Of a stretch of 64,000 bases of DNA, positions 1 to 58,500 are shown piece by piece. The position numbers and the translations under genes were made by a program. Within the stretch, counting starts at the first letter, position 1, and each line of letters opens with the position of its first letter. Under the pieces are notes generated by a model, which saw nothing but the letters and a program-made list of their open reading frames with translations, made no database searches and was not told the DNA's origin. This DNA is from Betaproteobacteria bacterium (GTDB lineage Bacteria > Pseudomonadota > Gammaproteobacteria > Burkholderiales > SG8-41): NCBI GenBank assembly GCA_900299145.1, contig OMIN01000058.1, positions 3,843 through 67,842 of the forward strand, written 5' to 3'.

Positions 1-675
1 AGCGCGGTATTTAGTAAATTACCGTTCGATGCAGTGCGCGACTTCGCGCCCATTACCATCGTCATGGCATCACCTTTTTTGCTGGTAGTGCATCCGTCGC
101 TGCCGGCCAAGACGGTGACTGAGCTGGTTGCGGTGTCCAAATCGCGCGGCAACCTGTCGTATTCATCGTTCGGCCCGGCAAGCATTGCGCATTTCGGCAT
201 GGAGCTCATCATGCTCAAAACGGGTATGCGGCTCACGCATGTTCCCTACAAGGGCGGTGCGCCCTCGGCGGCGGCGCTGGTCGGCGGTGAAGTCAACGCG
301 TCGCTCGATTCGGTGCAAAACCAGCTGCAGTTTATCCGCGGCAATCGCGTGCGCGCGTTGGCGCTAGCGGGCAGCTCGCGTCTGAAATCGCTCCCGGATG
401 TGCCCACGCTGGCGGAAGCCGGCATCGCCGGTGCGGAGATCGGCGGCTGGTATGCGTTGCTTGCACCCGCAGGCACGCCCAGGGCCATCATCAGCCGCAT
501 TTACGATGAAACACAAAAAGCGTTCAAGACGTCGCCGGAATTACGCGAACGATTTGAATCCACCGGCTCCGAACTGGTGCTCAACACGCCGGAAGTATTC
601 GCCGCGCGCATCAGGCAGGAAATTGCGGAATACACCAAGGTGGCGCGCGCGGCCAATATCACGGTCGGGCAGTAG
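1..675 (+). CDS. Bug/TctC-family periplasmic substrate-binding protein, C-terminal part (5' end off window)
   Basis: Frame 1 is open from base 1; the ORF track starts at an internal M at 34. Motifs PYKGGAPS and GWYALLAPAGTP. Paralogous to five other ORFs in the window. Confidence 0.85.
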   Translation, partial: SAVFSKLPFDAVRDFAPITIVMASPFLLVVHPSLPAKTVTELVAVSKSRGNLSYSSFGPASIAHFGMELIMLKTGMRLTHVPYKGGAPSAAALVGGEVNASLDSVQNQLQFIRGNRVRALALAGSSRLKSLPDVPTLAEAGIAGAEIGGWYALLAPAGTPRAIISRIYDETQKAFKTSPELRERFESTGSELVLNTPEVFAARIRQEIAEYTKVARAANITVGQ

Positions 676-721
676 CGGTGTAATCAGCCGTGAACTGGAA
701 CCACAAAGGGCGCCCGGCGTG

Positions 722-1282
722 TCACGGATTTTCAGGTTCGAACTGAACCGTCTGCCCGCGCAGGGTGATTGAACTCGTGAGCTTGACCGGGTTTACGATC
801 AACTGTTCGGCAAAGCATCCGCCCTTGGCGTTGCGCACGAGCGCCACGATTTTCTCCATCGGCTCGTCCGAATCAATATCAAGACGGGTGTTCACCCCCT
901 GCCAGCTGCCTTTCACCGTGCCCTGCAGCACCGAGCCGGATACCTGAAAATCGAGTTCAACGTGGCAGCGCGCCTTTTTCACTTTGAGCTTCATCATGGA
1001 CGCGTACCGCGCCACCTGAGTCAGCAGTCAAAAGCCGATGCCGAGCGCGAGATAACTCATCGGCGGCGCATGCCGGTTGGTGCCGCCGATGGTGGGTGGT
1101 TCATCCGAGTAAATGGTGAAGCCGCGCGAGTTGCCTACCTTAAGATGAGTCTCGTTTTCGATCGACTCCGTATCGGCGACCAGATGCATGGCGAGGCCCT
1201 GGCTCGGCAGTTCGGGTTTGTCGGTGATGCGTTCGCCGGGCTTGGTGCTCTGCTCGGCTGCGTTTAGCGGCTTTTCAGTCAT
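722..1282 (-). CDS. OsmC/Ohr-family peroxiredoxin-like protein with in-frame TGA at the conserved Cys position (candidate selenoprotein, otherwise pseudogene)
   Basis: ORF-track pieces 1028..1390 and 722..1015 share one frame and are separated only by TGA at 1028..1030: ...GGTNRHAPPMSYLALGIGF-TGA-LLTQVARYASMM... Second family Cys lies in GGCFAEQ. ATG at 1282 is preceded by GAGGAG. The track's longer N-terminus is a TTG extension into repeat copy A. Confidence 0.6.
996..1015 (-). promoter_or_regulatory. Candidate bacterial SECIS-like hairpin downstream of the in-frame UGA
   Basis: mRNA reads UGA-CUGCUGACUCAG-GUGGCGCG-GUA-CGCG(U)CCAU. Stem of about 8 bp with one bulged U, G-rich apical loop (GGUAC if the closing pair opens). 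The loop lies about 20 nt after the UGA. Confidence 0.4.
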
Positions 1283-1380
1283 GAAGTGCTCCTCGGTTGG
1301 CAATTGCTCGCGATGCAACGGATTGCCTATAGTGGCGCGATAGACGGCTTCCGGTTCCGGCCGGGCCGTCGGCGCATGGA

Positions 1381-1405
1381 AAAAATTCAATAAAACAAAT
1401 ACTTA
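1381..1405 (-). repeat. AT-rich dispersed repeat, copy A
   Basis: TAAGTATTTGTTTTATTGAATTTTT. Lies between the TPP-enzyme stop and the OsmC-like start. Confidence 0.85.
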
Positions 1406-1498
1406 CGATAGGCTGTTATACGCCCTCCACCCTTCACTCTTCACAACTTGCAAGATTTGAAACAGCCGCTTGTCGAAGCCAGCTTCTGTTCTGCCCCA

Positions 1499-3124
1499 TC
1501 AAAGCTTCGACACGCGCGTTTCCTTGCTGGTGATAAATTCCAGCAGCGCGGGTTTGCCTTGCTGCGTTGCTTCGATGCCACGCCGGATTGCCGCCTTGAT
1601 GTCGCCCGGCTGCGTTACGCGCTCGCCGTGGCCGTCGAAGGCTTTCGCCATGTCGGCATAGTTGCCGGAGATGTCGGTCGAGCGGTATTTCTCGGTGGAA
1701 ACCGGCATCACCTTCAACTCAATCGCCATCGAGAAATTGTTTAACAGGATGGACATGATGGGTATGCGCTCGCGCACGGCGGTTTCAAAATCCATGCCGG
1801 TAAAGCCAATCGCCGCGTCGCCCCAGATGTTCATGCACAGCTTGTCGGGCTTGGCGAGCTTTGCGCCCATTGCCATGCCGAGGCCGGAGCCGAGTTGCGT
1901 GGTCTTGCCCCAGCCCATGTAGGAGAGCGGCGTGGTGGACACCCAGAACGGCGTGATCTGATCACGCGGGCTGCCGGCATCATGGGTGATGATGCAGTTG
2001 TCGCGGTCGACCGTGTGCATCAAATCCCAGATCACGCGATACGGGTTCAGCGGCGCATCGTTGCTGGTGAGTAGCGGCATCCACTGCGCCAGAAACTGCT
2101 CGCGCAGTTTGGTGATTTCAGCGACAACGGCGGAGGCATCGCGCGGCGATTTAATCGTCTGGCCCAGTTCGCCGATCAGTGCCTGCAACACCAGTTGTGC
2201 ATCGCCCAGGAGCGCCACTTCCGCGCGCACGTCCTTGTTCAGGTGATCGGGTTCCAGCGTGGCGTGCACGAATTTCTTGCCCGCCGGAAACTTGATGCCG
2301 AAGTTGGTTTCGGTGAACGAGCAGCCGATGCCGATGATGAGATCGGCATTCTTGATGAATTCATGCACCGCCAGCGGTACCGAATTGCCGCCGGAGCCGA
2401 GCGACAGCGGATGATTCTCCGGAAAGCTCGACTTGCCACCGAGGCTGGTGGTGACCGGCGCACCGAGCAGCTCCGCGAACTGCTTCAGCTCCGCCCACGC
2501 TTCCGCCCACTGCACGCCCGTGCCCGCGTAGATGACTGGGCGCTTGGCCGCGAGAATCGCTGCAGCCGCCTTGCGCACATCTGCCGGATCGGGCGCGGTG
2601 CGGGCCTTGACCACCGGCGTGTAGTCAAAATCACCGATTTCCTCCTGCCAGATATCCGTGGGCACTTCAATCAAGCAAGGCCCGCCGCGGCCGTTGCGCA
2701 ACTTGGAAAAAGCCCGCCGCAGCGCATTGGGCGTCTCCTTCGGCATCATCAGGTGTTCGGCGGATTTGCTGACGCTGCGCATGTGTAGCGCCGATGAAAA
2801 ATTCGGGTCCACGCCCGCGATGCGCCGCGCGTAGCCCTGCGGCACCACCAGCACCGGAATGTTCTCGCTGTAGCACTGCGCAACCCCGCCATAGGCGTTC
2901 TCGGCGCCCGGCCCGTGCTGCATGCAAAACGCGCCGATTTTTTTGCCCGAAGTCACGCGCGAAATCGCATCGGCCATGTGCAAGCCGATGCGCTCCTGGC
3001 GCACGATGATCGGGCGGATGTTCTGCGCCGCCGCGAATTCGATCAGATGATTCACCGGATAACCGCAGAGTATTTCCATACCCTCGGCCTTCATGGCCTT
3101 CGCAATCGCTTCGCCGACTTTCAT
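1499..3124 (-). CDS. Thiamine-diphosphate-dependent enzyme, acetolactate synthase large-subunit family
   Basis: Full-length family resemblance, including the GDAAIGFTGMDFETAV...LLNN ThDP motif. Start moved to ATG 3124 (MKVGEAIAKAMK...), preceded by GGAGG. Confidence 0.85.
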   Translation of the reverse strand: MKVGEAIAKAMKAEGMEILCGYPVNHLIEFAAAQNIRPIIVRQERIGLHMADAISRVTSGKKIGAFCMQHGPGAENAYGGVAQCYSENIPVLVVPQGYARRIAGVDPNFSSALHMRSVSKSAEHLMMPKETPNALRRAFSKLRNGRGGPCLIEVPTDIWQEEIGDFDYTPVVKARTAPDPADVRKAAAAILAAKRPVIYAGTGVQWAEAWAELKQFAELLGAPVTTSLGGKSSFPENHPLSLGSGGNSVPLAVHEFIKNADLIIGIGCSFTETNFGIKFPAGKKFVHATLEPDHLNKDVRAEVALLGDAQLVLQALIGELGQTIKSPRDASAVVAEITKLREQFLAQWMPLLTSNDAPLNPYRVIWDLMHTVDRDNCIITHDAGSPRDQITPFWVSTTPLSYMGWGKTTQLGSGLGMAMGAKLAKPDKLCMNIWGDAAIGFTGMDFETAVRERIPIMSILLNNFSMAIELKVMPVSTEKYRSTDISGNYADMAKAFDGHGERVTQPGDIKAAIRRGIEATQQGKPALLEFITSKETRVSKL

Positions 3125-10302: not shown

Positions 10303-11727
10303 ATGCGGACATATCGTAAGTATCTGTTTTTATTAATATTTTTCTGCGATGCCGCACAAGCCCAACTGCCGCCGCCGGTGGCGCAGGCACTCGCCCGCGC
10401 GGGCATTGCCGAAAGCGGCGTCGGCCTTTATGTGCACGAAGTCGGCGCTGCTGAGCCGGTGGCCGTGCATCGCGGCGACCAGCCGCTTAACCCTGCGTCG
10501 GTGATGAAACTCGTCACCACATACGCCGCGCTGGAACTGCTGGGTCCCGCGCATCAGTGGAGTACCGATCTTTTCACCGACGGCGAGTTGCAGCAGGACA
10601 CGCTCGCCGGCAATGTGTATCTCAAGGGCGGTGGCGATCCCAAGTTCACCATTGAAAATTTCTGGCTGCTGCTGCGTGCGCTGCGTGCCAAAGGCGTGCG
10701 CCAGATCCGCGGTGATCTGGTGCTCGACCGTTCCTTGTTCACCACCGCGCATCCCGATCCCGGCCAGTTTGATAACGAACCGCTGCAACCGTACAACACC
10801 ACGCCCGACGCGCTGCTCGCCAATTTCAAAACCTTCACGCTGACCTTCAAGCCGGAAGCCGATGGTAAAGCGGTCAACGTTACCGTTGACCCGCCGCTGC
10901 CGCAACTGCAAATTGTCAATCAACTCACGGTAAGCGACGGCCCCTGCGGCGGCCTATGGATGAACCGTATCAAAACGCAGGCGCAGGATGCCGGCGACAG
11001 CGCGCGCCTGACACTCGCCGGGCCGTATTCGCGCCAGTGCGGTGAACAGGCGAATTACTACAGCTTGTTGAGCCACCGCGCTTACGCTGCCGGACTGTTT
11101 CAATATTTGTGGCGCGAACTCGGCGGAACATTCAGCGGCCGCGTGCGCGAAGCCGACGTACCACCCGCTGCGGCGAAAATTGCCAGCCAACGTTCACTTG
11201 CGCTGTCTGAAATCGTGCGCGACATCAATAAATTCAGTAACAACGTGATGGCGCGGCAACTGCTGCTGTCTGTAGGCTTAACGACGGGCGCATCCGGCGG
11301 CGGCGCGCAATCGACACCTGAACGTGGCGCCCAAGCCGCGCGGCAATTCTTCGCCAGCAAGAACCTGCCGATGCAGCAACTGGTGATTGAAAATGGCTCC
11401 GGCCTGTCGCGCATCGAACGCGTCAGCGCGCGCGATCTCGGCCAGATGCTACTAAGCGCCTGGCGCAGTCCGGTAATGCCGGAATTCATGGCGTCCATGC
11501 CGCTGGTCGGTGTTGACGGCACCATGGTCCGGCGCCTGAAAAATTCCGACGTCGCCGGACAAGCCCACATCAAAACGGGCCTCATCAACGGCGTGCGCGC
11601 GCTGGGTGGTTATGTGCTGGATGCCAGGGGAAAGCGCGTGGTTGCCGTGCTACTGATCAATCATGCCAACGCGCACAATGCGAATCTGGTGCAGGATGCT
11701 TTTTTGCGTTGGGTGCATGCCCGATAG
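10303..11727 (+). CDS. dacB: D-alanyl-D-alanine carboxypeptidase/endopeptidase (PBP4 family)
   Basis: SxxK (SVMK), SxN (SNN) and KTG motifs in order. Start set at ATG 10303 (MRTYRKYLFLLIFFCDAAQA signal peptide). The upstream part of the track ORF overlaps the bioA 3' end. Confidence 0.85.
   Translation: MRTYRKYLFLLIFFCDAAQAQLPPPVAQALARAGIAESGVGLYVHEVGAAEPVAVHRGDQPLNPASVMKLVTTYAALELLGPAHQWSTDLFTDGELQQDTLAGNVYLKGGGDPKFTIENFWLLLRALRAKGVRQIRGDLVLDRSLFTTAHPDPGQFDNEPLQPYNTTPDALLANFKTFTLTFKPEADGKAVNVTVDPPLPQLQIVNQLTVSDGPCGGLWMNRIKTQAQDAGDSARLTLAGPYSRQCGEQANYYSLLSHRAYAAGLFQYLWRELGGTFSGRVREADVPPAAAKIASQRSLALSEIVRDINKFSNNVMARQLLLSVGLTTGASGGGAQSTPERGAQAARQFFASKNLPMQQLVIENGSGLSRIERVSARDLGQMLLSAWRSPVMPEFMASMPLVGVDGTMVRRLKNSDVAGQAHIKTGLINGVRALGGYVLDARGKRVVAVLLINHANAHNANLVQDAFLRWVHAR
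10317..10343 (+). repeat. AT-rich dispersed repeat, copy C
   Basis: TAAGTATCTGTTTTTATTAATATTTTT. Lies inside the first 14 codons of dacB. Confidence 0.9.
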
Positions 11728-13253: not shown

Positions 13254-14225
13254 TTATTCAGGCTGTATCCCGGCATCCTTAATCGCCTTCGCCCACTTTA
13301 CTGTCTCCACGCGCGTGCGCTCGCCCAGCTGGGCTGGCGTGTGCGGGCTGGTCTCCACGCCAAATGCGATGAGCCGGTCCTTGACCTCTTTACTGTTGGC
13401 GGCGTTGTTGAGGGCCGTGTTCAAGCGCTCAATCACCGGTTGCGGCGTGCCGCGCGGGGCATAAGCCGCGAACCAAGCGATCAGTTCATAGCCTTTCAAT
13501 CCGCCGGCTTCTTCCACCGTGGGCAGATCGATGAGCGCGGTGCGCTTTAACGACGTGACCGCCAGACCTTTGATCTTGCCCGCCTTCACCTGCGGCATGG
13601 TTACCGCGAGGTCAGCGGTGAACATCATCACCTGCCCCGCGATCAAATCGGTGATGGCGTGCGGCGAGCTCTTATACGGCACCATGGTCAGCTTGATGCC
13701 TGCCATATTGGCGAACATTTCCGTCGACACGCGCTGCGAGGTGCTGGCAGACGCATACAGAAACTCGCCTGGCTTCGATTTTGCCAGTGCGATCATGTCT
13801 TTCAGGTTTTTTACCGGCAGCGTATTGTTGACCGCGACAATCAGCGGCACCGACCCTAAAAACGCGATTGGCACGAAATCCTTGTCCTGATCGTACGGCA
13901 GCTTTTTGTACAAACTCACCAGTGCGGCGTTGGTGCTGTTGGTGCCGCACAAGATGGTGTAGCCGTCGGGCGCGGCTTTGGCCACCGCCTCCGCGCCGAT
14001 CATACCGTTGGCGCCGGGGCGGTTGTCGATTACGCCAGCCTGGCCCAGTAGCTCGTTGAATTTGGCGGTGTAACTGCGCCCCACGGTGTCGGTGGCGCTG
14101 CCGGCAGCGAACGGCACCACAACGCGGATGGCTTTGGACGGGTACGACTGCGCTACGGCAGCGCAGGGCAGGCAAGCGGCCCACGCCAGCGCGGCAGCCA
14201 TGGGCATGCAACGATACGAACGCAT
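13254..14225 (-). CDS. Bug/TctC-family periplasmic substrate-binding protein
   Basis: Signal peptide, then SYPSKAIRVVVPFAAGSATD, DNRPGANG and PYKSS motifs. Confidence 0.9.
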   Translation of the reverse strand: MRSYRCMPMAAALAWAACLPCAAVAQSYPSKAIRVVVPFAAGSATDTVGRSYTAKFNELLGQAGVIDNRPGANGMIGAEAVAKAAPDGYTILCGTNSTNAALVSLYKKLPYDQDKDFVPIAFLGSVPLIVAVNNTLPVKNLKDMIALAKSKPGEFLYASASTSQRVSTEMFANMAGIKLTMVPYKSSPHAITDLIAGQVMMFTADLAVTMPQVKAGKIKGLAVTSLKRTALIDLPTVEEAGGLKGYELIAWFAAYAPRGTPQPVIERLNTALNNAANSKEVKDRLIAFGVETSPHTPAQLGERTRVETVKWAKAIKDAGIQPE

Positions 14226-26813: not shown

Positions 26814-29800
26814 CTACCGCCTTCCGTCTCCAAACAGTGCATAGGGCGCCCAAAAGATCGGATGCGCATATGAAAATTCCGGAGATCCCGGCCCGTCAAT
26901 GAGCGCCAGCATCGCGTCATTTAGCGCTTGCGCCCGTGTCATGTCCGGATTCTTTGCATAGCGCTCGAAAATGCCGGTCACAAGCACGCGCGCTGATTCC
27001 GATTCCACGGGCCAGTGCGTGGCCAGCAATGCGCGGCTCCCTGCATAAAAGAAACCCCGCCCCAGACCGGACAGCGCTTCAGCGCCCGCGCCGTCACCCG
27101 ACGCGGTATTGCAAGCGGAGAGCACCACCCAATCCGCGTCCAGCTTGAGTCCCAGCACGTCTTCCAGTGTTAATAGGGGTGATTCCTTTGGGTCATCAGT
27201 CTGGGTCATCGCAAGCGCAGGTTGTGTAAGTCCAGGTAGATCTCCGGGTACCAATCCATGCGTTGCAAACGCCAGTATTCGGCGTTGAGCCAGGTCTATC
27301 GACTTCACGGTGTTTCGCGTTGCGAGGGCGCCAAAGAAAACATCCTGCTTGAAATCCGCGCCCAATACGCGAGCGATGGCTTCAATTTCCTCGCGGGTCT
27401 CGGGTAGCGGCGAAAGGCTGCCATAGGAAACATAATCTACTGCTTGCCGACTGGGATCCCGCGTGGCGGCCACGCGATCGACATTGATGTTGCGTAAACC
27501 GCGGCTGCCGCCCGTTGCCGCCGGCGTCCGGCCAAACTGGGGGTCGCCAAATCCCGCGAAAGCGGTTCTAGTGGCACTGCCTTGCGGTAGTGCGCGCAAT
27601 CGCACAAAGGCATTCACAGACGGCACGTTGGCCACCGCCACTTTGCGAGCTAACCAAGGTGCTACTTTCATCCCAGATAGAGGTTGTACACCTTGATCGG
27701 CATCCGTGCCTACCGTGAAGGACTGCGTTAATGTCAAAGACAGCGGCAATTGACCCAGCACGCCATCGGCCGCGACGACCAGTGTCTTGGCGTCACGCCA
27801 GACCTGCTCGACCGGGGCGAGCAATTCCAAATACAAACGATGAGCAGCCGCGTAATCAAACTGCCGCAATACTGGTAGAGTAACCGAGCCGGGATCTAGC
27901 GTTTGTCTGAGTTTGGCTACGACAGACGCGACCTCTTGAGCAGACATGGAACTGGCGTGAAAAGCCATAGCACCAGCGGGCCTGACCGCCCAGACAAATG
28001 TTTGGCTGGCACCGGGCACGATCAACAACAGTGCTTCATCCGAGGCCAGTGATTTTCGGGCTTCGTCCAGTGCCGCCGGGCGCGGGCTGATCAAATTAGC
28101 ATAATCGGGAAACCCCTCCTCGATGCTCCGAAAAAGCTCGGCACGTTTGCCGGTCAACGCATCGACACGGGCACGCAAGACTTTTACCGCTTCCTCGCGC
28201 TCTTTCGAATCAGCAGCTGTGGCAAGCGCTAGCAATCGATCATTGAGCCCAGCAATTTCCAGTCTGGCATCTTGTTCGCCGCGAATCAAATCACTCAACT
28301 TTGGCGTGCCCGCAAGGGCGCGTGCCGCGCTCGCGGCAAGGGCGGATTGCACGGCACCGCCCAGCATCGCGTCCCCTAGCCGGAACGAATCTTCCACCAT
28401 AGCGGCGCTTTGGAAGGTTCGTGTCTGATATATGAGATCTGCATAGGCTTCAAATATTGCTCGCCGGACATGCCGCCGTAACGCGTCTTCGGCCTCTGTT
28501 TCAGTGCCGCGCCGTCTGGCAGTGAGTGCCGGTAATGCCGCCGCAAAGTAGGAAAATGCCCGGTCAGTATCACCGGTGGCAGCAAGGGCCACCCCCAACA
28601 GTCCTTTCGATTCCGCGGTCTCGTAGCGGTCTGCTCCAAGGAATCGCTCTTGCTCCGCGACAAGCGCTGTCAGCCACGCCGCTGCTTGCCGGGCGCGTCC
28701 CATCCGCAATAGCGCGAGCGCCCACGCAGGTTGCCGCTCGGTGGATTTCAGCAGAAACTCGTCTTCGGTGAGTGATTCCCGCAACTGGTCGATACGATCT
28801 ACGGCCCCACGCCAATCCAGAATTCCTATACGCGAGACTATCGCTACCTGCCGGGAATAGAACGAAAACCCGGCAGAAGCCGGCACGCCAAGTGCTTTCA
28901 TGTCGTCAACCGCTGCGTCGGCTAATGCCGTCGACTCCTGGTATCGCCCCTGGGCCACCAATACTTCACCCAGCGTTGCCAGAGCCAGCGCGGTGGAGGG
29001 TGAATTTCGGCCATAGCGATCGGCGTTGCGGACGATCATCTGGCGGCCAAGCAACTCGGCTTCTTGCAAGCGTCCCTGACGCAGGTGCAATCTGATCAAC
29101 TGCATCTGGATCAGGTCGAGCAACTGCCAGGTAACATCTTCCGCGGGCGAACGCTCGACGGTTTTGCTCCGGCTAGCCGCCAACTTTGTATCGGCCAACG
29201 CATGCGCGTGAGCTGCCTTGAGCGCCCGTTCTCCGGCCTGCACATTGCCGTCCGCCAGCAATGTATCGGCCTTGGCCCACCCCAGCATTGCATTGATCAG
29301 ATCAGTCAAACCGGCTGAGCCTACAAAGCTGCGTCCTTTGCGAATCAGCGCGTCGATACTATCCGTCTGTGTCCGGGCGCTGGAGGTATCGCCAAAGAAC
29401 GTTTGCATGCGCGCGGCCAAGCTTTGCGCCGCAATATCCTGCCCCCACCAGGCAGCGGGTGCACTTGTCACTCGGCGCACGTGAGCATGCGCCCGCGACC
29501 AGTTGCCGGCTGTCATTTCGTTGATTGATAAATCAATCAGATGTTTTGGCAGATTGTGGTCGGTCTGACTGATTTCGACCAACTTTGTACGGGCTTCTAT
29601 CACGGCTGAAAGATGGCCCAGCCGCGCGGCGGCAGCAGCCCGTTCAATTAGGTAGGCTGATTGGACTGCGACAGAAGCGTCCGAGGATGGCGCTTTACGC
29701 GAAAGCGTTTCTTGTGCTTGCGCCGTGTCCGCGGATAACGTCTGCCGCGCCAGCAAATCAAAAATATCTGCAACCGTACGTGGCTGTGCTTGCGCAGAGC

Positions 29801-29852
29801 CTGCCAGTACGACACAGAAAAGGGCGCCGAGGAACAAAGAGGCTTTGGACAC
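26814..29852 (-). CDS. Secreted TPR-repeat CHAT-domain (caspase-like) protease
   Basis: Signal peptide MSKASLFLGALFCVVLAGSAQA. Long helical-repeat N-terminal region. C-terminal CHAT His/Cys dyad context (FATHG ... LSACNTASG). Confidence 0.8.
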   Translation of the reverse strand: MSKASLFLGALFCVVLAGSAQAQPRTVADIFDLLARQTLSADTAQAQETLSRKAPSSDASVAVQSAYLIERAAAAARLGHLSAVIEARTKLVEISQTDHNLPKHLIDLSINEMTAGNWSRAHAHVRRVTSAPAAWWGQDIAAQSLAARMQTFFGDTSSARTQTDSIDALIRKGRSFVGSAGLTDLINAMLGWAKADTLLADGNVQAGERALKAAHAHALADTKLAASRSKTVERSPAEDVTWQLLDLIQMQLIRLHLRQGRLQEAELLGRQMIVRNADRYGRNSPSTALALATLGEVLVAQGRYQESTALADAAVDDMKALGVPASAGFSFYSRQVAIVSRIGILDWRGAVDRIDQLRESLTEDEFLLKSTERQPAWALALLRMGRARQAAAWLTALVAEQERFLGADRYETAESKGLLGVALAATGDTDRAFSYFAAALPALTARRRGTETEAEDALRRHVRRAIFEAYADLIYQTRTFQSAAMVEDSFRLGDAMLGGAVQSALAASAARALAGTPKLSDLIRGEQDARLEIAGLNDRLLALATAADSKEREEAVKVLRARVDALTGKRAELFRSIEEGFPDYANLISPRPAALDEARKSLASDEALLLIVPGASQTFVWAVRPAGAMAFHASSMSAQEVASVVAKLRQTLDPGSVTLPVLRQFDYAAAHRLYLELLAPVEQVWRDAKTLVVAADGVLGQLPLSLTLTQSFTVGTDADQGVQPLSGMKVAPWLARKVAVANVPSVNAFVRLRALPQGSATRTAFAGFGDPQFGRTPAATGGSRGLRNINVDRVAATRDPSRQAVDYVSYGSLSPLPETREEIEAIARVLGADFKQDVFFGALATRNTVKSIDLAQRRILAFATHGLVPGDLPGLTQPALAMTQTDDPKESPLLTLEDVLGLKLDADWVVLSACNTASGDGAGAEALSGLGRGFFYAGSRALLATHWPVESESARVLVTGIFERYAKNPDMTRAQALNDAMLALIDGPGSPEFSYAHPIFWAPYALFGDGRR

Positions 29853-29872
29853 TGCGATTCCCCGCTACCTGA

Positions 29873-30253
29873 TCACTTGACCCGAAATACATAGTTGCAT
29901 TGCCTGCTTTGTCCTTTAAAGGGGCTTTCTTTCGATGCCGGATCGTACTTCATCGAAATACCGCTATCGCGGCAGCCATCGAACGTAAAGCTGTCGTCGC
30001 CGAGCCGGGCTTCCTTCTTGCATGTGCCGCGATCGAAATTATTGATCTCAATAATGACCTTTCCTTCTTCATCGCGAAAAACCAAATGCGACCTGTTAAT
30101 CGATGCTCCGCCTCTACCACAAGCAGATTCAACATCAAATCCATTTGGGGCCAGCAATGCGTCTTTCAACTTCACTGACGACGGTCCGGTTTGTTGAGCT
30201 GACGTGGAATTCGACAACACAGCAATAATCGCCAACACATTTCTGAATTTCAT
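29873..30253 (-). CDS. Small secreted protein with four Cys, immediately upstream of the CHAT gene
   Basis: Signal peptide MKFRNVLAIIAVLSNSTSA. Four Cys residues. AT-rich codon usage compared with neighbours. 20-nt gap to the CHAT gene. Confidence 0.55.
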   Translation of the reverse strand: MKFRNVLAIIAVLSNSTSAQQTGPSSVKLKDALLAPNGFDVESACGRGGASINRSHLVFRDEEGKVIIEINNFDRGTCKKEARLGDDSFTFDGCRDSGISMKYDPASKESPFKGQSRQCNYVFRVK

Positions 30254-30480
30254 ACCCCCTCCGTGACGTGTCTATGGAAACCCGGCAAACCGCTACTGCT
30301 TTCTTCCAGTAAGCGCTGAAAGCGAAGTAGTAGAAACATAAAATAGATTCGCGCTCGCCTTAACCGACGGCACCCCAACATCTTACGCTTCCAGCATCAT
30401 GATCTGTGCACGATCATTCCGAAGATGAATTGAGACGATTCAGAGTGAAAACCACATCTACCGTGACCATGATACGCCCG

Positions 30481-31449
30481 TCATTCTGCCTTAATACCTG
30501 CTGCCCGTATTGTCTTTCCCCATTTCGCAATCTCCTCTATTAACCGCGCTGAAAATGAGTCAGGCGTATTCCCCACCGGTTCCGCCCCTTCCGCCGATAG
30601 CCGCGCTTTCACCTCCGGCAATTGCAGTGCCCGAGACATTTCGCGCTGAACGGTGATGCGTACCGGCAACAGCGTGCCCGCTGGCGCCATCATGCCGTAC
30701 CACTGCGTGACTTCGAAGCCGGGAAAGCCCTGCACAGCGATGGTGGGAATCTCCGGCAATGCTGCCATGCGCGCTCGGCTGGTGACGCCCAGTGCGTTCA
30801 CGCGCCCGCCGCGCAGATGTGGCAGCATGGTCAACGCGCTTGAAATTGCCACATGTACCTGGCCGGCAATAATGTCGGGAAATGCCAGCGCCATGCCCTT
30901 ATAGGGAATATGCTGCATGTCGATACCGGCGGCGGACTTGATCAGCTCCGCTGTCAGATGCACCAGACTGCCCTTGCCGGGCGAGGCGTAGTTGAAAGCC
31001 TGTTTGCCTTTTGCAAGCGCAATGAACTGTTGCAACGTTTTGGCGGGCACGCCGGCATTGACGGCAAACACATAGGGGTTTTCACTCGCCAGACTGACCG
31101 GGGCAAGATCACGCAGTGTGTCGTAATTTACCTTGTACAGCAGTTGGTTGGTAACGAACGTGCTCGACGAAAACAGCAGCGTATGCCCGTCTGGCGCGGC
31201 GCGCGTGGTCAAATCGACTGCAATGCTTCCGCCAGCTCCAGGCCGGTTATCGACAACGAATTGCTGACCCAGCCGCTCGGTCAGCTTTTGCGCCAGCGAG
31301 CGGCCGACGGTATCGGTGCCGCCACCCGCGGCGACCGAGACGATGACACGAACGGGGCGGTTTGGGTAGGCAGCGCCCGCACCCAGCGCCGAGTGCGTGT
31401 TGACGTAGAGCACGGTCAGCAACAGCATGCCCGTGCAACGTGGCCGCAT
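30481..31449 (-). CDS. Bug/TctC-family periplasmic substrate-binding protein
   Basis: AYPNRPVRVIVSVAAGGGTD, DNRPGAGG and PYKG motifs. Start set at ATG 31449 (AAGG RBS); the track start is TTG. Confidence 0.9.
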   Translation of the reverse strand: MRPRCTGMLLLTVLYVNTHSALGAGAAYPNRPVRVIVSVAAGGGTDTVGRSLAQKLTERLGQQFVVDNRPGAGGSIAVDLTTRAAPDGHTLLFSSSTFVTNQLLYKVNYDTLRDLAPVSLASENPYVFAVNAGVPAKTLQQFIALAKGKQAFNYASPGKGSLVHLTAELIKSAAGIDMQHIPYKGMALAFPDIIAGQVHVAISSALTMLPHLRGGRVNALGVTSRARMAALPEIPTIAVQGFPGFEVTQWYGMMAPAGTLLPVRITVQREMSRALQLPEVKARLSAEGAEPVGNTPDSFSARLIEEIAKWGKTIRAAGIKAE

Positions 31450-31490
31450 GTCAACCTTGCAACTTTGCAACGTTTCAACTTCCCAGCTTT

Positions 31491-33747: not shown

Positions 33748-33773
33748 AAATATTGTTTGAAAACAGATACTTA
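33746..33773 (-). repeat. AT-rich dispersed repeat, copy H
   Basis: TAAGTATCTGTTTTCAAACAATATTTTT. Spans the stop of 33013..33747 up to the Bug start at 33778. Confidence 0.8.
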
Positions 33774-33777
33774 TGAC

Positions 33778-34749
33778 ATGCCTATCCTAAAACAACTGGT
33801 TATGTGCGTGCTGCTTGCGGTGGCCGCGACTGCGAGTGCCCAGCCCTTCCCCACCAAACCGATACGCATCATCGCGCCGTTCCCACCCGGTGGCAGTGTC
33901 GATTTCACCGCGCGCGTGGTCGCGCCCAAGCTCGCCGAATCTTTGGGGCAGCAAGTAGTGATCGACAATCGTTCGGGGGCATCCGGCAACATCGGCAGTG
34001 AGTTGGCGGCGCGTGCCGCGCCTGATGGATACACACTGCTCGCGAACACACTGCCTTATGTAACCAACGGCTTTTTGTATAGCCGCATGGCGTACGACGT
34101 CACCCGTGATTTCGTGCCCCTTTCCGTGCTGGCGTCTTCGCCCGCGATGCTGGTGGTGCATCCTTCGGTGCCGGTGAAATCAGTGCGTGAGCTGGTGCAG
34201 TTGGCGAAGAACAAACCGGGCATGTTGAGCTATGCGTCATCCGGCCCGGGCAGCAATCACCATATCGCGGGCGAGCTGATTAACTACCTCGCCAAAGTTG
34301 AAATCGTGCATATTCATTTCAAAGGCGGCGGGCCCGCGGCAGTGGCCAATCTGTCGGGTGAAGTGGGCCTGAACTGGCCCAACGTGATGCAAGCGGTGCC
34401 CTTCATCAAAACGGGCCGCATCCGCGGGCTGGGTGTCACCAGCGCCAAGCGCTCGAAAGCCACGCCGGATGTGCCCGCCATTGCCGAATCCGGCGTCGCA
34501 GGATTGGAGGGCTACGACTTCACGCCGTGGCAAATCATGGCCGCGCCCGCGGGCACGCCTGCGACGATCGTGGCGTTGCTCAACGAACATCTGGTGAAAG
34601 CTATGCGTTCGCCCGAGGTTGCGGACCGCATGGCGCGCGATGGCGCCGACGTCATCGCCAGTTCGCCGGAGCAGGCGGCCAAACACGTGCAATCGGAACT
34701 CGACAAATGGCGCCGCGTGATCAAGGAACGCGGCATGCGCGCGGAGTAA
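33778..34749 (+). CDS. Bug/TctC-family periplasmic substrate-binding protein
   Basis: Signal peptide, then PFPTKPIRIIAPFPPGGSVD and DNRSGASG motifs. ATG 33778; the track's TTG extension reads through repeat copy H. Confidence 0.9.
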   Translation: MPILKQLVMCVLLAVAATASAQPFPTKPIRIIAPFPPGGSVDFTARVVAPKLAESLGQQVVIDNRSGASGNIGSELAARAAPDGYTLLANTLPYVTNGFLYSRMAYDVTRDFVPLSVLASSPAMLVVHPSVPVKSVRELVQLAKNKPGMLSYASSGPGSNHHIAGELINYLAKVEIVHIHFKGGGPAAVANLSGEVGLNWPNVMQAVPFIKTGRIRGLGVTSAKRSKATPDVPAIAESGVAGLEGYDFTPWQIMAAPAGTPATIVALLNEHLVKAMRSPEVADRMARDGADVIASSPEQAAKHVQSELDKWRRVIKERGMRAE

Positions 34750-35729
34750 TGGCGGCGGCTTTGGTACTTTTAGTGCCGTGGGTGTTATCGGCAATGCAGG
34801 GTGCGGCTTACGCGCAGCCCGCGCCTGCGCCATCTTACCCGTCGCGCCCGCTGCGCATGCTCATTCCCGCAGGCGCTGGCGGCGGCGTGGACACCGTCGC
34901 GCGCCTGGTGGGTGCGCAGCTGGCAACCGCGCTCGGCCAGCCGGTCACCATGGACAACCGGCCCGGTGCCGGCACTATGCTCGCTTCCGAACTCACCGCC
35001 AAAGCGCCGCCCGACGGCCACACACTGTTAATGGTGACCAGCAGTCACGCCATCAACGCCGGCATCCACAAAAACCTGCGCTACGATCCGGTGGAAGATT
35101 TTTCAGCCATCGGCTTCGCCGCGACGTTGCCGTTTGTGCTGGTGATACACCCCAGCGTGCCAGCGAAATCCGCACGCGACATCATCGCGCTGGCGCGGCA
35201 GCATCCGGGCAAACTGTATTTTTCGTCGGCAGGCGCGGGCTCGGGTACGCACCTCGCGTTCGAACTCTTTGCCGCACTGTCGAAAATCAGCGCCGTGCAT
35301 GTGCCTTATAAGGGCGGCTCGGCGGCGCTGGTGGATCTGGCGGGCGGCCACGTACAACTGATGTTCAGCAATGTCATCAACTGCATGCCCTATGTGCGCA
35401 ACAAGCGGCTCATCGCACTGGGCATTTCCACGCCGAAGCCGTCACCGCTGTTTCCGGGCCTGCCTGCGGTGGCGGAATCCGGCTTGCCGGGCTATGAAGC
35501 CGACACGTGGTACGGCGTGCTTGCGCCGGCGCGCGTGCCCGCCGACATCGTGACGCGGCTGAATCGCGAGATCAATGCCATTCTGCGCACAGCCGACGTG
35601 CGTGAAAAGCTCGCCGCACAAGGCGCTGAAGTTGCTGTCAGCACGCCGGAAGAATTCGCGGCGCTGATGCGCCGCGAGATTCAAAAGTGGGGCAAAGTTA
35701 CCAGTGGCTTGAAGCTGCAGCTCCAATAA
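34749..35729 (+). CDS. Bug/TctC-family periplasmic substrate-binding protein
   Basis: TAATG overlap with the preceding gene. MAAALVLLVPWVLSAMQGAAYA signal peptide, SYPSRPLRMLIPAGAGGGVD, DNRPGAG and PYKGG motifs. Confidence 0.9.
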   Translation: MAAALVLLVPWVLSAMQGAAYAQPAPAPSYPSRPLRMLIPAGAGGGVDTVARLVGAQLATALGQPVTMDNRPGAGTMLASELTAKAPPDGHTLLMVTSSHAINAGIHKNLRYDPVEDFSAIGFAATLPFVLVIHPSVPAKSARDIIALARQHPGKLYFSSAGAGSGTHLAFELFAALSKISAVHVPYKGGSAALVDLAGGHVQLMFSNVINCMPYVRNKRLIALGISTPKPSPLFPGLPAVAESGLPGYEADTWYGVLAPARVPADIVTRLNREINAILRTADVREKLAAQGAEVAVSTPEEFAALMRREIQKWGKVTSGLKLQLQ

Positions 35730-38175: not shown

Positions 38176-38655
38176 AATGCGGCCTATGTGCGTGCCTTCG
38201 GTGCCGTGATGATGGCCGCTGGTGTGACTGTGGTTGCCATACGCGCCCGCCTCCGGCTCGAACGGCGCGAGCATCGGCTTCACTGTCGCACCCAACCCGT
38301 GCAGCATTAGTGCCAGCACATGATCGGCGGCGATGCGCAAAAAACCGTCGCCCACCTGTACCGGCACATGGCGGTTGCCAAGATGGTATGCGGCACGCGC
38401 AAGTGCCGTGGCGTCGGCGCATTCGATATGCAGCACGTCTTCGGGTTGCGCAATCACCTCGACAATACGCCCATCGCTCGCCAGCAATTTATCACCGCCG
38501 CGCAGAATGTCACCGCGCGGCAACAGCAGCCAGGCATCCTCGCCATCCGCGAGCTTCGTGCGCAAACGGCTTTTCCGCCGCAGATCGAAAGGCAACTGCA
38601 GTCGCGCCTGTGCGGCTCGGCTGTCGTTCGAAAGTTTGCCTGTCAGCTCGACCAT
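38155..38655 (-). CDS. ureE: Urease accessory metallochaperone UreE
   Basis: AYHLGNRH motif and His-rich C-terminus ([10 protein letters not shown]). Start ATG 38655 overlaps the ureC stop (TGATG). Confidence 0.9.
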
Positions 38656-40352
38656 CAGAATAAAAAATACCGTTGCGCCATTGGCAGCAGCTTGGCGGGC
38701 TCGCACACCAGCAGTTCGCCATCGGCGTGCACTTCATAGGTTTCGGCATCGACGGTAATCTTCGGCTGCCAGTCGTTATGCACCATGTCTTTCTTGCCAA
38801 TTTTGCGCACGTTGCGAATGGCTTCGAGGGGCTTCATCAAGCCCAGCTTCCGCACGGCGGGGTTTTTCAGTGCGGCTTTGGAGACGAAGGTTAGCGACGT
38901 GTTCAGCGCCGTGCCAAAGCTGCCGAACATCGGCCGGTAATGCACCGGCTGTGGCGTGGGAATCGAAGCATTCGGGTCACCCATGGCGGCGGCGGCGATC
39001 ATGCCGCCCTTCAGAATCAAAAACGGTTTGACGCCGAAAAACGCCGGCTTCCACAACACCAGATCGGCGAGCTTGCCCGATTCGACCGACCCCACCACGT
39101 GCGAGATGCCGTGCGCGATAGCCGGGTTGATAGTGTACTTCGCCACGAAACGTTTCACGCGCGTGTTGTCGTGTTGCTTCGGATCGCCTTTGAGTGAACC
39201 GCGCTGCACTTTCATTTTGTGCGCGGTCTGCCAGGTGCGGATGATGACCTCGCCCACGCGGCCCATCGCCTGCGAGTCGGAGGACATCATCGAAAACGCG
39301 CCCAGGTCATGCAGAATGTCTTCGGCGGCAATGGTTTCCTTGCGGATGCGCGACTCGGCAAACGCCACGTCTTCCGCAATCGCCGGATCGAGGTGGTGGC
39401 ACACCATCAGCATGTCCAGATGCTCGGCAATGGTGTTCACCGTGTACGGCATAGTCGGGTTAGTCGACGACGGCAGCACGTTGGCTTCGCCGCACACCTT
39501 GATAATGTCGGGCGCGTGGCCACCACCTGCGCCCTCGGTGTGAAAGGTGCAGATGGCGCGGCCCTTCATCGCCGCCACCGTGGTTTCGACAAAGCCGGAT
39601 TCGTTAAGTGTGTCGGTGTGGATCGCCACCTGCACATCCATTTTGTCGGCGACTGAAAGACAGTTGTCGATGGCCGCCGGCGTGGTGCCCCAGTCCTCGT
39701 GCAGCTTCAGGCCGATGGCGCCGGCGTCAATTTGTTCCTTCAAAGGTGCGGGCTGGCTGACGTTGCCCTTGCCGAGAAAACCGAGATTCATCGGGAATGC
39801 ATCGGCCGCACGCAACATCGAATGGATGTGCCACGGCCCCGGCGTGCAGGTGGTCGCAAACGTGCCGGTGGCGGGGCCGGTGCCGCCGCCGATCATGGTA
39901 GTCACGCCCGACATCAGCGCCTCTTCGATTTGCTGCGGGCAAATGAAATGAATGTGCGTGTCGATGCCGCCGGCGGTGACGATCATGCCTTCGCCGGCAA
40001 TGATCTCGGTGGCCGCGCCGATGGGGATGGTGATCGCGGGTTGGATATCCGGATTGCCGGCCTTGCCAATTTTCCAGATGCGGCCCTTTTTGATGCCGAT
40101 GTCGGCCTTGACGATGCCCCAGTGGTCGATGATCAATGCGTTGGTAATCACCGTGTCGGCAACTTTCGCCGAGGCGAGCTGGCTCTGCCCCATGCCATCG
40201 CGGATCACCTTGCCGCCGCCGAATTTCACTTCTTCGCCATAGGTGGTGAAATCTCTTTCGACTTCAATCCACAAATCGGTGTCGGCAAGCCGCACCCGGT
40301 CGCCGGTAGTGGGGCCAAACATTTCGGTATAGGCCTGGCGGGAGATTTTCAT
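38655..40352 (-). CDS. ureC: Urease subunit alpha
   Basis: Full-length match to urease alpha ([39 protein letters not shown]). Confidence 0.97.
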
Positions 40353-50475: not shown

Positions 50476-51453
50476 GTGCGAAATGTATTGACTACGGTGT
50501 TTGTTCTTGCGAGCGGCGCGTTAAGCGTGGGATACAGTAGCGCGGGCCACGCGCAGACGTTTCCCACCAAGCCCATCCGTTTCATCATTCCCACCGCTGC
50601 TGGCGGCGGTTCCGATCAGATCGTGCGTTTCCTCGGCAACCGCTACACCGCCGCGTGGGCGCAGCAGATCGTGGTGGATAACCGGCCCGGCGCGGGCATG
50701 GTGATTGGCATCGACCTCGCATCGAAAGCCACGCCCGACGGCCACACGCTGGTGCTGGTGAATCCGTCGCACGCGATCAACGCCACGCTGATGGCGAAGC
50801 TACCGTACGATCCGGTGAATGATCTGATTCCCATTTGCGTGGTCGCTACGCAGGCGTTCGGGCTGGTGACGCCCAATTCGCTGCCGGCGAAAAACGTCAA
50901 GGAGCTGATTGCACTGCTGAAAACCAAACCACGCGGCTATTCGTTTGGCTCATCGGGGCCGGGCTCGGCCTCGCATCTCGCAGGCGAAATGTTTCTCGGC
51001 ATGACCGGCACGGAAATGGTTCACATCGCTTACAAGGGTACGGGGCCGGTGCTGACCGATCTGATACCGGGGCGCCTGCAGATGTACATCAACCCGATGC
51101 TGGCGATTATCAATCAGGTGAACGCGGGGCAGTTGCGTTTGCTTGGCGTAACCTCCGCCAGGCGCGTGGCGTCGCTGCCCGATGTACCCACGGTGAGCGA
51201 GGCCGGCGTGCCGGGGTACGAGGCGACGTCGTGGTACATGGTGCTGGCCCCCGCCAAAACGCCCGCGCCCATCATCAACCAGATTCATCGCGAAACAGCC
51301 AACGCGTTAAAGGCCAAGGACATGCTCGATATGCTGGCCAAAGGCGGGACCGAAGCGCTGGGCAACACACCCGCGGAAGCGATGACGTTCCTGAAATCCG
51401 AAATCGCAAAGTGGGGCAAGGTGATCCGCGACGCGAAAATTACCCAGCAGTAG
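50476..51453 (+). CDS. Bug/TctC-family periplasmic substrate-binding protein
   Basis: GTG start after GGAGG. FPTKPIRFIIPTAAGGGSD, DNRPGAG and AYKGTG motifs. Confidence 0.9.
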   Translation: MRNVLTTVFVLASGALSVGYSSAGHAQTFPTKPIRFIIPTAAGGGSDQIVRFLGNRYTAAWAQQIVVDNRPGAGMVIGIDLASKATPDGHTLVLVNPSHAINATLMAKLPYDPVNDLIPICVVATQAFGLVTPNSLPAKNVKELIALLKTKPRGYSFGSSGPGSASHLAGEMFLGMTGTEMVHIAYKGTGPVLTDLIPGRLQMYINPMLAIINQVNAGQLRLLGVTSARRVASLPDVPTVSEAGVPGYEATSWYMVLAPAKTPAPIINQIHRETANALKAKDMLDMLAKGGTEALGNTPAEAMTFLKSEIAKWGKVIRDAKITQQ

Positions 51454-55501: not shown

Positions 55502-58500
55502 CCCGGCGTCCAGTGTCAGCGCCGTGGCGATTTCCGCGGGTTTGTCTGCTTTCACCTCGGCGGCGGCCTTGCTGCCAATACGCGCTTCTTCAAGGCCAGC
55601 CGTGGTTTTGAGATGACTCAGGATCGCTGAACTGCGTTGCGCCGCCAGCGCCGTCAACGCATCTTTGGCGAGCGGCTGCAATTCAATTACCTGATTGAAC
55701 AGCGCTTCCTAGAATTGGCGGTCGGGGCTGCCGCGCCCCACGAGCGCCAGCGCCGGGTTGACCCGGCTCACCGGCTTGCCGGTGGCTTTTTCGTGTGTGG
55801 CCCTGAATTTGTCTATGCCGTCTTTGCCCACACGTTCTTCCATCATGGCCTCAATCGCACGCTGCGTTTTGGCGTTGTCGAAATTTACCAGCACAGGATC
55901 TTCTTCGCCCGTGACCTTGATGCCTTGCCGCTCCGCCAGTGCGCGCCGCGCCGCCGATGCGCGCAACGCCGCGCCGTCGTGACGCGTATCGTAGCGGCCT
56001 TCCACCAGCAGCTTGAGTTGTGGCCGCTGCTTTAGCACACCAGCGACGCGCGCGAGTTTTTCCCGCTCCGGCGGCGTAAGCAGTGCGCGGCCTGCTTCAA
56101 AAGCGATGGCGTCCATTTTCTCCGCGCCACCTCCGAACAGCGACGCCAGCGCCCGAAACGGTGCGGTGACGATATTGGTCAGCACGGTGCGAATCGCCTG
56201 CCACACCAGATGTCCATAGGCGAATTCCGGGTTGTCGACATTGCCGCGCACCGGCACCGACAGATCAATCTTGCCGTTGGAATCCGTAAGCAGCGCAATC
56301 GCAAGGTCCAGCGGCAGATTGATGGCCGTCGGGCTATCCACGCGCTCGCCCAGCGTGAACTGTTCTAGCAACACCTTGTTCTCGCCCTGCAACTGGCTGT
56401 TGTTTAACTTGTATTGCAAGTCCAGCGATAATTTGCCGGAGGCGATACGGCGCCCGGCGAACGTCGCGCTGTAGGGCGTGAGCGGTGACATCGCCACGTT
56501 GCGGAAATTCACCGCGATATCGGTGAACGCTTTCGGCTCGAACGGATTTAACGTGCCACCAATTTGCGCCTGTCCGAACTCATCCACGCGGCCTTCGAGC
56601 TTCACGCCCGCGCGCGTGCCTGGCTGACTGGAAAGCCCGGTAATCGTGCCATTGAATTCCCGTATCAGCGCTGCAAACGGCAGCACCAGGCTTTGATCGG
56701 CAAAATCCAGTTCACCGTTGCTGACATTAACGCGTTCGATACTGAAATTGAACGGCGCTTCGCCAGCCGTGGTATTGGAGGCTGCCGGCGTTGGCGTCGA
56801 AGCTGTTTGTTCAGCCGCGTCGGCAGACTTGCGAAGTATGCCCGCGAAATTGGTGCTTTTGTCCCTTGCAATGGCGATCTTGCCGCTGGGTGCGGTGAGC
56901 CGCACGTCCTCAATACGCGCCGCACTATCCAGCTGTATGCCTTCGGCAAGCAGCCCTTTTAGCGCTACCAACCGCTCGTCGCCACCTTCCGGGTCCAGCC
57001 GAAAATCATCCAGCCCGGCGCTGCCCGTATATAACGCACGCCCGGGGCTTTGCCTTGCCCACTCCATTCGATCTGTCCGGCTGCGTGCGCCGCGCCCGAC
57101 ACCAGTTTTAGCGTGGTGTACTTTGCCACCACGCCCGCCAGCGGCAACAAGGCCACGTTGCGCGCCTCAACCTTGAACGACGCGCGCTGTTCGGCGGTGG
57201 AGGCCGTACCCTGCGCCCGCAACGACGCGCCCGGTGCGGGCGCTGGCGCGTTGGTGGCCGTAGCGCCGGCGGCGGCAACGCGCACATCCTCCAACGCGGC
57301 ATTGCCGTTGTAACGAATGCCGGCGGCCTTGCCGTCGCCGTTCCAGTCCAGTTGCCCGCCAACCTGCGCCGTGCCAGCTGTTAGTTTGAAGCCGGATTGC
57401 TTTTCGATGAGCGCTGCCAAAGGTAGCAGGGCGATGCTGTTGGCGTCGAGCTTGATGCTGGCGCGTTGTTGCGACGGTGTCACGTTGCCGGTCGCGCGCA
57501 GCGTGCCGCCCTGTTTGATTTGCAGAGCCGCTTCAAACGGCATCGCGTTCTTGCCACTGCTGTCGAAATTTTTCGCAGCGAAGCGCAGGCTTTGCACATC
57601 CAGCGCGAGCGGCGTATTCGCACCCAGATCACGAAACGATGCCGTGCCATCCACGACTTCGATGGCGAGAATTTCCGCGCTGATCGAATCCGGCTCGGGC
57701 GGCCTGGGTCTTCGCGCAAACGCCGTGGCCAAATTGATTGTGCCGCTCGCGTCGCGCACCATAGCCGTGGCCGGTTTGCTGATCTTGACTGCGTTGGCAA
57801 AAAATTTCTTTTGCGCCAGATCGAAATTGCCACCGGCAAGATTCGCCGACGCAAGCGTCACGAGACTCTCTTTTGCGCCCGCTGAAGAAATCCGAATGTC
57901 GGCTACGTCGACCGTAATATTTTCGACGTTCGCCGTCACTTGCGCACCAACCGACGCCTTGACGCTGGTGCTGGCGGCGGCGCGCGCGATGTCCACGGTC
58001 AGCGGTTGCACGAAACCCTGATCGATGACGCGCAGGCGCACGTCTTCGGCCTTGACACTATCGATGGCAAATTGCCACGGAGCCACGGAGGCAGCCTGCG
58101 CGGCAGCCGGTTCGGTGGCGGGTTTCTCGGCAGTCGGCTTCGCACCGCCAGCCGCCACGAGTTGCGCCCAGTTGTTGTCGCCTTTGGCGTCGATCAACGT
58201 ATTGGCGGCGATCTTGTTCAAGGCAAGTTGCGCAAACTGAATTTTGCGCTGTGCAAGATCAAACGTGCCGCCGCTGAGCGCCAGTTCACCCGCAGTCAAC
58301 GCCGTTTCCGCCACACCTCTTTGTCTAAGCGAAACATCCGCAAGATTGAACGTTATCGCGCTGGCTGACGCCGCAAGTTTGCTGTCCGCGTAGCGGGCAT
58401 CGTACTGCAGCGACAGCCCCGCTTGCCCGCCCGGTTCTTCGATGCGCAACTTATCCTGCACGAACTGCCACAGCGTGGTGAGCTTCACGGACTTCACTTC

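Follow-up and report, generated by a model that had tools for sequence, protein, structure and literature searches.

The window, as we call the whole stretch of 64,000 nucleotides (64 kb) analysed here, carries an OsmC-like gene on its minus strand which is interrupted by an in-frame TGA (Table 1). From the start codon at 1282 to the end at 722 the sequence forms a single reading frame of 187 codons including the terminal TGA and codes for 186 amino acids on read-through. The TGA at codon 85, which is preceded by 84 amino acids, is the sole interruption of this frame. The peptide reads ...PPMSYLALGIGF directly before and LLTQVARYASMMKLKV... directly after this codon, the left flank being quoted also in the longer form ...RHAPPMSYLALGIGF in front of LLTQVARYASMMKLKV. 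Gene callers break the gene into two ORFs of 84 and 91 amino acids. In the initial annotation it had been proposed that the two ORF fragments are one frame cut only by the TGA, and direct reading of the minus strand confirms this. The second cysteine of the family, which had been described as intact within GGCFAEQ, is likewise present as Cys156.

The orthologues of the gene share its start M-x-E/D-K-P-L-N, and since they start at the same motif the start codon is well placed. A promoter scan of the region 500..1700 did not reveal a sigma-70-like promoter, and the lone terminator-like site found in this region lies inside the gene and on the wrong strand.

Table 1 Features of the OsmC-like gene in the window
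Feature	Position	Strand	Remarks
Sec-type OsmC-like gene	722..1282	minus	ATG 1282..1280, terminal TGA 724..722; 186 residues including the predicted Sec85
In-frame UGA, predicted Sec85 (U-L-L-T motif)	1028..1030	minus	UGA-C context; TGA kept in relatives; Cys column in homologues
Cys156 TGC codon (GGCFAEQ), presumed resolving cysteine	815..817	minus	aligned with the second Cys of 3CJE (GCFLEQ) and 2ONF
Shine-Dalgarno-like GAGGAG	1289..1294	minus	6 nt 5′ of the ATG; sequence inspection
SECIS hairpin core, columns 13–36 counted from the U of UGA	995..1018	minus	RNAalifold consensus, conservation, covariation

The OsmC-like protein and the position of codon 85

With the stop replaced by Cys, the protein matches the Pfam model PF02566 (OsmC) with 47.8 bits (cutoff 27.5, E = 2e-12) and the NCBIfam model NF041052 (OsmC_like_Se, "OsmC-related (seleno)protein") with 164.1 bits (cutoff 95), the latter over the model positions 4–144 of 144. 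A search of the protein against the sequences of solved structures returned OsmC-family chains only. In the alignment the column of codon 85 is the first conserved Cys of the PDB chains 3CJE, 2OPL, 9WO1, 2ONF, and 1VLA. The same column is occupied by Cys in the full-length homologues P0001–P0004 and P0008 (...GIGF-C-LLTQVARY...). The earlier placement of the TGA at the first catalytic cysteine of the OsmC/Ohr proteins is thus confirmed by the PDB chains as well as by the Cys-containing homologues. The protein search also returned fragments which either end with ...GIGF or begin with MMK..., and we take these to be what gene callers produce from Sec-type genes. Both Cys156 and the threonine T88 of the UxxT motif (U85-L86-L87-T88) are invariant in the two alignments A1 and A3.

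For a structural view we used an AlphaFold model of the Cys-type homologue P0001, which is 64% identical (mean pLDDT 75). The top 47 PDB matches of this model are all OsmC/Ohr structures, and the cysteine equivalent to Sec85 sits in a long central helix formed by residues 74–94. Ahead of the OsmC domain there is a strongly conserved N-terminal motif, S-T-x-P-G-E-R-I-x-D-K-P-E-L-P (about 1282..1130, minus strand), which is found in the Sec as well as in the Cys forms. This N-terminal extension is covered by no position of a Pfam or NCBIfam model, and within it residues 1–18 of P0001 are poorly modelled (pLDDT < 50). In a weak alignment (E = 0.03) the glutamate of the P-L-E motif of 1VLA, the OsmC protein of T. 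maritima, falls on Ser76, a residue which is variable in the Sec OsmC-like family. As this glutamate is aligned with a variable serine, the catalytic mechanism may differ from that of Ohr/OsmC. To our knowledge, no member of the Sec-type OsmC-like subfamily has been characterised biochemically.

Conservation of the UGA codon and of the downstream hairpin

A scan of species-representative genomes yielded 11 loci with 71–91% identity, comprising Betaproteobacteria/Burkholderiales MAGs, one Tectomicrobia MAG, and others. All 11 have TGA at codon 85; TAA or TAG at this codon is found in none of them, nor is there any other disruption of the gene. The nearest of these copies reaches no more than 91% protein identity. 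In metagenomes 80 loci with 83 gene copies were found, which reach down to about 50% protein identity, and again TGA is present at codon 85 in 83 of 83. Genomes and metagenomes taken together, the TGA is conserved in all 94 related gene copies. In total, the comparison draws on 95 Sec-type copies together with 5 Cys-type homologues. It had been considered that close relatives might carry TGC and no conserved hairpin; instead, relatives with 85–91% identity keep the TGA together with the hairpin. In the window and in 81 of the 83 metagenome copies the UGA is followed by C. The gene of the window itself, with its TGA, was recovered from six independently assembled metagenome samples with 0–1 mismatches over 561 nt, and all identical copies of it that were recovered come from metagenome assemblies of freshwater.

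The region downstream of the TGA shows the substitution pattern of a coding sequence. Pairwise comparison of 12 genome sequences, which have nucleotide identities of 68–93% to each other, gave 0.128, 0.080, and 0.452 differences per site for the codon positions 1, 2, and 3 downstream of the TGA and 0.115, 0.068, and 0.417 upstream of it. As the divergence at the three codon positions is similar on both sides, both halves of the gene are under the same coding constraint.

Some organisms carry more than one gene of this type. At one locus (L071) two Sec-type OsmC-like genes lie in tandem (319..864 and about 1130..1670), both having a UGA and a SECIS of their own. Two different paralogues are found on one short contig (L020). 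In addition, a Nitrospinaceae MAG has an ORF (P0005) that opens directly behind one UGA and continues without a stop up to the next, which points to a fusion of two domains containing two Sec residues.

The hairpin GUGGCGCG-GUA-CGCGUCCAU starts 13 nt 3′ of the UGA. We built an RNAalifold consensus on 21 distinct sequences, in which column 1 is the U of the UGA. The consensus pairs are 13-36, 14-35, 16-33, 18-32, 19-31, 20-30, 21-29, 22-28, and 23-27, which gives an upper stem of 6 bp and an apical loop of G24, U25, and A26 (1007..1005, minus strand). U17 (base 1014, minus strand), which does not vary, bulges out of the 5′ strand as a single base. Several of the pairs vary among the sequences: the pair 18:32 is U-A in nine sequences and G-C in eight, the pair 19:31 is either G-C or G-U with a G19-U31 wobble in the window, and the pair 20:30 changes once from C-G to U-A (in L035). 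In the consensus hairpin 96.8% of the cells are paired, and none of 500 shuffles matches either the observed pairing or the observed covariation score. When the partner strand is slid out of register the pairing collapses. The fold of the single sequence (48 nt from the UGA) has an energy of −14.2 kcal/mol against −12.1 ± 2.5 kcal/mol for shuffles (z = −0.85) and hence no excess stability. Since the single-sequence energy is like that of the shuffles, the significance of the hairpin comes from the comparative data only.

The initial annotation had already given the sequence of the hairpin, its start after the UGA, and its GUA loop, and these points hold. Its register does not, as U31 pairs with G19 and it is U17, on the 5′ strand, that stays unpaired. 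The earlier fold, in which U31 bulges from the 3′ strand, was dropped because the in-register consensus accounts for every class of sequence. The assignment of the hairpin as a bacterial SECIS element is borne out by the consensus over columns 13–36, by the G and U in the apical loop, and by conservation at the RNA level. A search of the region 600..1400 against Rfam gave only matches at chance level, with no SECIS family among the matches returned.

The hairpin region has the most conserved nucleotides of the whole gene. Of 175 codon columns, only 12 show no nucleotide difference among the 12 genome sequences, and nine of these lie within codons 85–98. The longest invariant run, with L011 excluded, has 25 nt, begins at nucleotide 268 of the gene, 16 nt after the U of the UGA, and covers the hairpin. 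The third-position divergence of codons 86–98 is 0.125, that is about 3.5-fold below that of the remainder of the gene (0.42–0.45). The Cys-type genes code for the same peptide LLTQVARYASMMK with other synonymous codons (for example, GTC GCA CGT TAT GCG TCG or GTC GCC CGG TAC GCC AGC), and no common hairpin is found in the Cys-type genes which encode LLTQVARYASMMK. Given that these genes specify the same peptide with scrambled codons, the frozen synonymous sites go with the UGA rather than with the protein. The comparative set is a clean natural example of SECIS constraint on synonymous sites, and it yields a SECIS model which is consistent in register and very close in geometry to that of fdhF.

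Gene content of the window and search for the selenocysteine machinery

Neither selA, selB, and selD nor a tRNA-Sec was found in the 64-kb window when it was searched with ARAGORN and Rfam and when the 40 larger ORFs were searched with Pfam for SelA, SelB, and SelD. The search could be extended with a 58.5-kb freshwater metagenome contig (L097, SRR1514963 / PRJNA254927), which has 3 mismatches to the window in 11.3 kb and runs about 9 kb past its left edge. This additional part contains groES/groEL and a prophage-like pair of HTH and M78-peptidase genes; sel genes are absent from it as well (about 73 kb examined in total). As a rule, sel genes do not lie near most selenoprotein genes, and therefore their absence from the window is weak evidence. 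A scan of the window in all frames for coding stretches joined by a TGA returned only the OsmC-like gene besides the trivial in-frame ureB-ureC junction.

ARAGORN reported a 91-nt "tRNA-Ser(cga)" at 680..770 (minus strand), which overlaps the 3′ end of the OsmC-like gene. A tRNA-Sec-like reading of this site was dropped, as its anticodon differs from UCA. With Rfam there is no tRNA match here, either at the gathering score or at E ≤ 10, and the site holds a T-loop-like palindrome, GGTTCGAA. The ARAGORN prediction is almost certainly a false positive.

The window is very dense in TctC genes of the tripartite tricarboxylate transporters, with at least seven of them. Genes of the TctC/Bug family are located at 34..675, 13254..14225, 30481..31470, 33757..34749, 34527..35729, and 50476..51453, and a further one at 10608..11582 of the contig L097. 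A high density of TctC/Bug genes is typical of Burkholderiales. TctC genes flank the Sec-type OsmC-like gene in most of the related loci, including distant ones. Because TctC genes are so abundant in these genomes, this flanking may be due to chance and we do not draw a functional link between TctC and the OsmC-like protein. The adjacency of the neighbouring gene for a ThDP enzyme to the OsmC-like gene is kept only in near-identical contigs.

Further genes of the window may be mentioned. Two overlapping ORFs in differing frames, 55709..57067 and 56965..59166 (both on the minus strand), match the positions 19–591 and 575–983, respectively, of the 1037 positions of the DUF748 profile. The region 55709..59166 looks like a single large gene of the AsmA/DUF748 type with a frameshift, which would be due either to a real pseudogene or to an assembly error. 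At 39920..40203 (plus strand) there is an Rfam match of 123 bits to the Helicobacter "5′ ureB sRNA", which lies antisense to the gene of the urease alpha subunit (38655..40352, minus strand). This match is probably due to the conserved coding sequence of the urease and not to a real antisense sRNA of the organism. In addition, the minus strand encodes at 26814..29852 a protein of 1012 amino acids with TPR repeats and a C-terminal CHAT (caspase-like protease) domain. In the approximately 630 bp 5′ of this gene (29853..30480) there is no ORF of 150 amino acids or more.

Reading of the locus and comparison with known systems

We suggest that the frame from 1282 to 722 is very probably a genuine selenoprotein gene of the OsmC-like type (COG1765/YhfA-type, UxxT), in which UGA85 is read as Sec with the help of the conserved SECIS element. 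The selenoprotein reading of the initial annotation is upheld by the position of the TGA in the Sec/Cys column, by the TGA in 94 of 94 related copies, by the coding constraint downstream of it, by the covariation in the hairpin, and by the NF041052 score.

The single sequence alone would also be compatible with a nonsense pseudogene, in which a TGC-to-TGA mutation has killed an ordinary Cys-type OsmC gene, and the split into two called ORFs as well as the lack of Sec machinery in the window would suit such a gene. This alternative, which had been raised together with the selenoprotein reading, is rejected by the comparative data and has to be regarded as extremely unlikely. The other copies, which come from several phyla, have the TGA at the very same codon and are devoid of TAA, TAG, frameshifts, and extra stops; substitutions are dominated by third positions downstream of the TGA as they are upstream; the synonymous sites are frozen exactly over the hairpin; and with pairwise nucleotide identities as low as 68% the relatives are not one clonal sequence. 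That the TGA is spurious and stems from a sequencing or assembly error has a probability close to nil. The apparently frameshifted DUF748 gene might be taken as a sign that the assembly contains errors; nevertheless, the TGA is shared by the six independent metagenome assemblies and by all relatives.

Two further explanations accept the TGA as real. In one of them gene and SECIS are intact, the genome has lost its Sec machinery, and only the peptide of 84 amino acids is made. Such a relic would agree with the failure to find selA, selB, selC, or selD in the region examined and with the lack of a second selenoprotein gene in the window. However, the window covers only a small part of a genome and linkage of sel genes to a selenoprotein gene is the exception, gene and SECIS are free of decay and identical across six samples, and the close relatives retain UGA and hairpin, which makes this explanation quite improbable. 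In the other one the UGA is recoded without Sec, for example through near-cognate read-through by Trp or Cys, or the two halves are made separately and assemble. UGA-C is a weak terminator in E. coli, which would favour read-through, and an ATG follows shortly after the UGA (MMKLKV), from which the second half could be started. On the contrary, the hairpin is conserved and has the geometry of a SECIS element with the bulged U17 and with G and U in the loop, and the UGA falls on the column which holds the redox-active Cys in this family. Just 5′ of the internal ATG the sequence shows no evident Shine-Dalgarno motif, and the OsmC fold continues across the break. We consider recoding without Sec, including separate synthesis of the halves, as highly improbable.

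With UGA85 read as Sec, the events at the ribosome can be proposed by analogy with the SECIS of E. coli fdhF. Translation would continue at UGA85 instead of stopping there. The hairpin with the bulged U17 in the mRNA would bind SelB carrying Sec-tRNA(Sec), and SelB would bring Sec to UGA85 as the ribosome arrives. The binding of SelB and the incorporation of selenium at this codon are inferred from the geometry of the hairpin and from its conservation. In the protein, Sec85 would take the position of the first (peroxidatic) Cys in the long central helix and Cys156 the second (resolving) position. The selenolate of Sec85 could then attack a hydroperoxide or another oxidised substrate, and Sec85 and Cys156 might form a selenenylsulfide which would be re-reduced by a thiol donor. 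Judging from the homology with the two-cysteine OsmC/Ohr proteins, such a peroxidase-type chemistry of Sec85 and Cys156 is the most likely one.

A more far-reaching interpretation would be that the Sec OsmC-like subfamily is not a classical Ohr/OsmC hydroperoxidase but a selenium-dependent oxidoreductase with another substrate or partner. The frozen SECIS could then be a specially tuned SelB site of high efficiency, shaped by the combined constraints on protein and RNA or spread by horizontal transfer. This interpretation draws on the lack of the aligned catalytic glutamate, on the strongly conserved N-terminal extension, on the tandem and fused copies with several Sec residues, and on the SECIS of 25–27 nt which is nearly frozen across phyla. 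We regard it as rather unlikely.

Since standard gene callers report the gene as two hypothetical ORFs, the selenoprotein is easily missed or labelled as a pseudogene. Recognising the Sec OsmC-like gene marks the organism as a likely user of selenocysteine. The practical value of our analysis lies in the correct annotation, and the current view of Sec decoding or of OsmC proteins is not changed by it.

The Sec OsmC-like family is already known and curated (NF041052), and the gene is an ordinary member of it. Among the 15 selenoprotein families which Zhang, Fomenko and Gladyshev introduced in 2005 from the Sargasso Sea is an OsmC-like protein that has the UxxT motif and a predicted SECIS (PMC1088965). 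The OsmC-like selenoprotein recurs with the motif UxxT in the GOS selenoproteome (PMC2398784), it appears in the study of the Olavius symbionts (PMC1976440), and the UxxT form is included in reviews of 2022 and 2026 (PMC9312934, PMC13188914). The statement in the initial annotation that OsmC-like Sec proteins had been reported from metagenomic selenoproteome surveys was thus correct, and so was its view that the gene does not represent a new family. The family described in 2005 has the same domain, the U-x-x-T motif, Sec at the position of the first Cys, and a predicted SECIS directly 3′ of it. It was first seen in marine metagenomes, whereas the copy in the window is from a freshwater betaproteobacterium (Burkholderiales-like); nothing essential differs.

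In the SECIS of E. coli fdhF the upper stem–loop begins about 11 nt after the UGA, U17 is bulged on the 5′ side, and G23 and U24 of the loop make contacts to SelB (PMC8659212). Both elements lie within the coding sequence and have in common the stem–loop about 11–13 nt after the UGA, the bulged U17, and a G and a U in the loop at about positions 23–25. They differ in the upper stem, which has 6 bp in the window and 4 in fdhF, and in the loop, which is GUA in the window (GGUAC if the closing G-C pair opens) and GGUC in fdhF. The lower stem of the window hairpin is short with two to three pairs.

The two-cysteine organic hydroperoxide reductases of the Ohr/OsmC type (PDB 1N2F, 1QWI, 1VLA) share the fold of the Sec protein. 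Their redox positions are equivalent, with the first one on a long helix and the second one at the start of a later helix. The identity to the protein of the window is 11–22%, and the first redox residue is Sec here and Cys there. In addition, the glutamate of 1VLA is aligned with Ser76, and the protein of the window has an N-terminal extension beyond the OsmC model. The closest solved relatives of the protein, 3CJE and 2OPL, are proteins from structural genomics.
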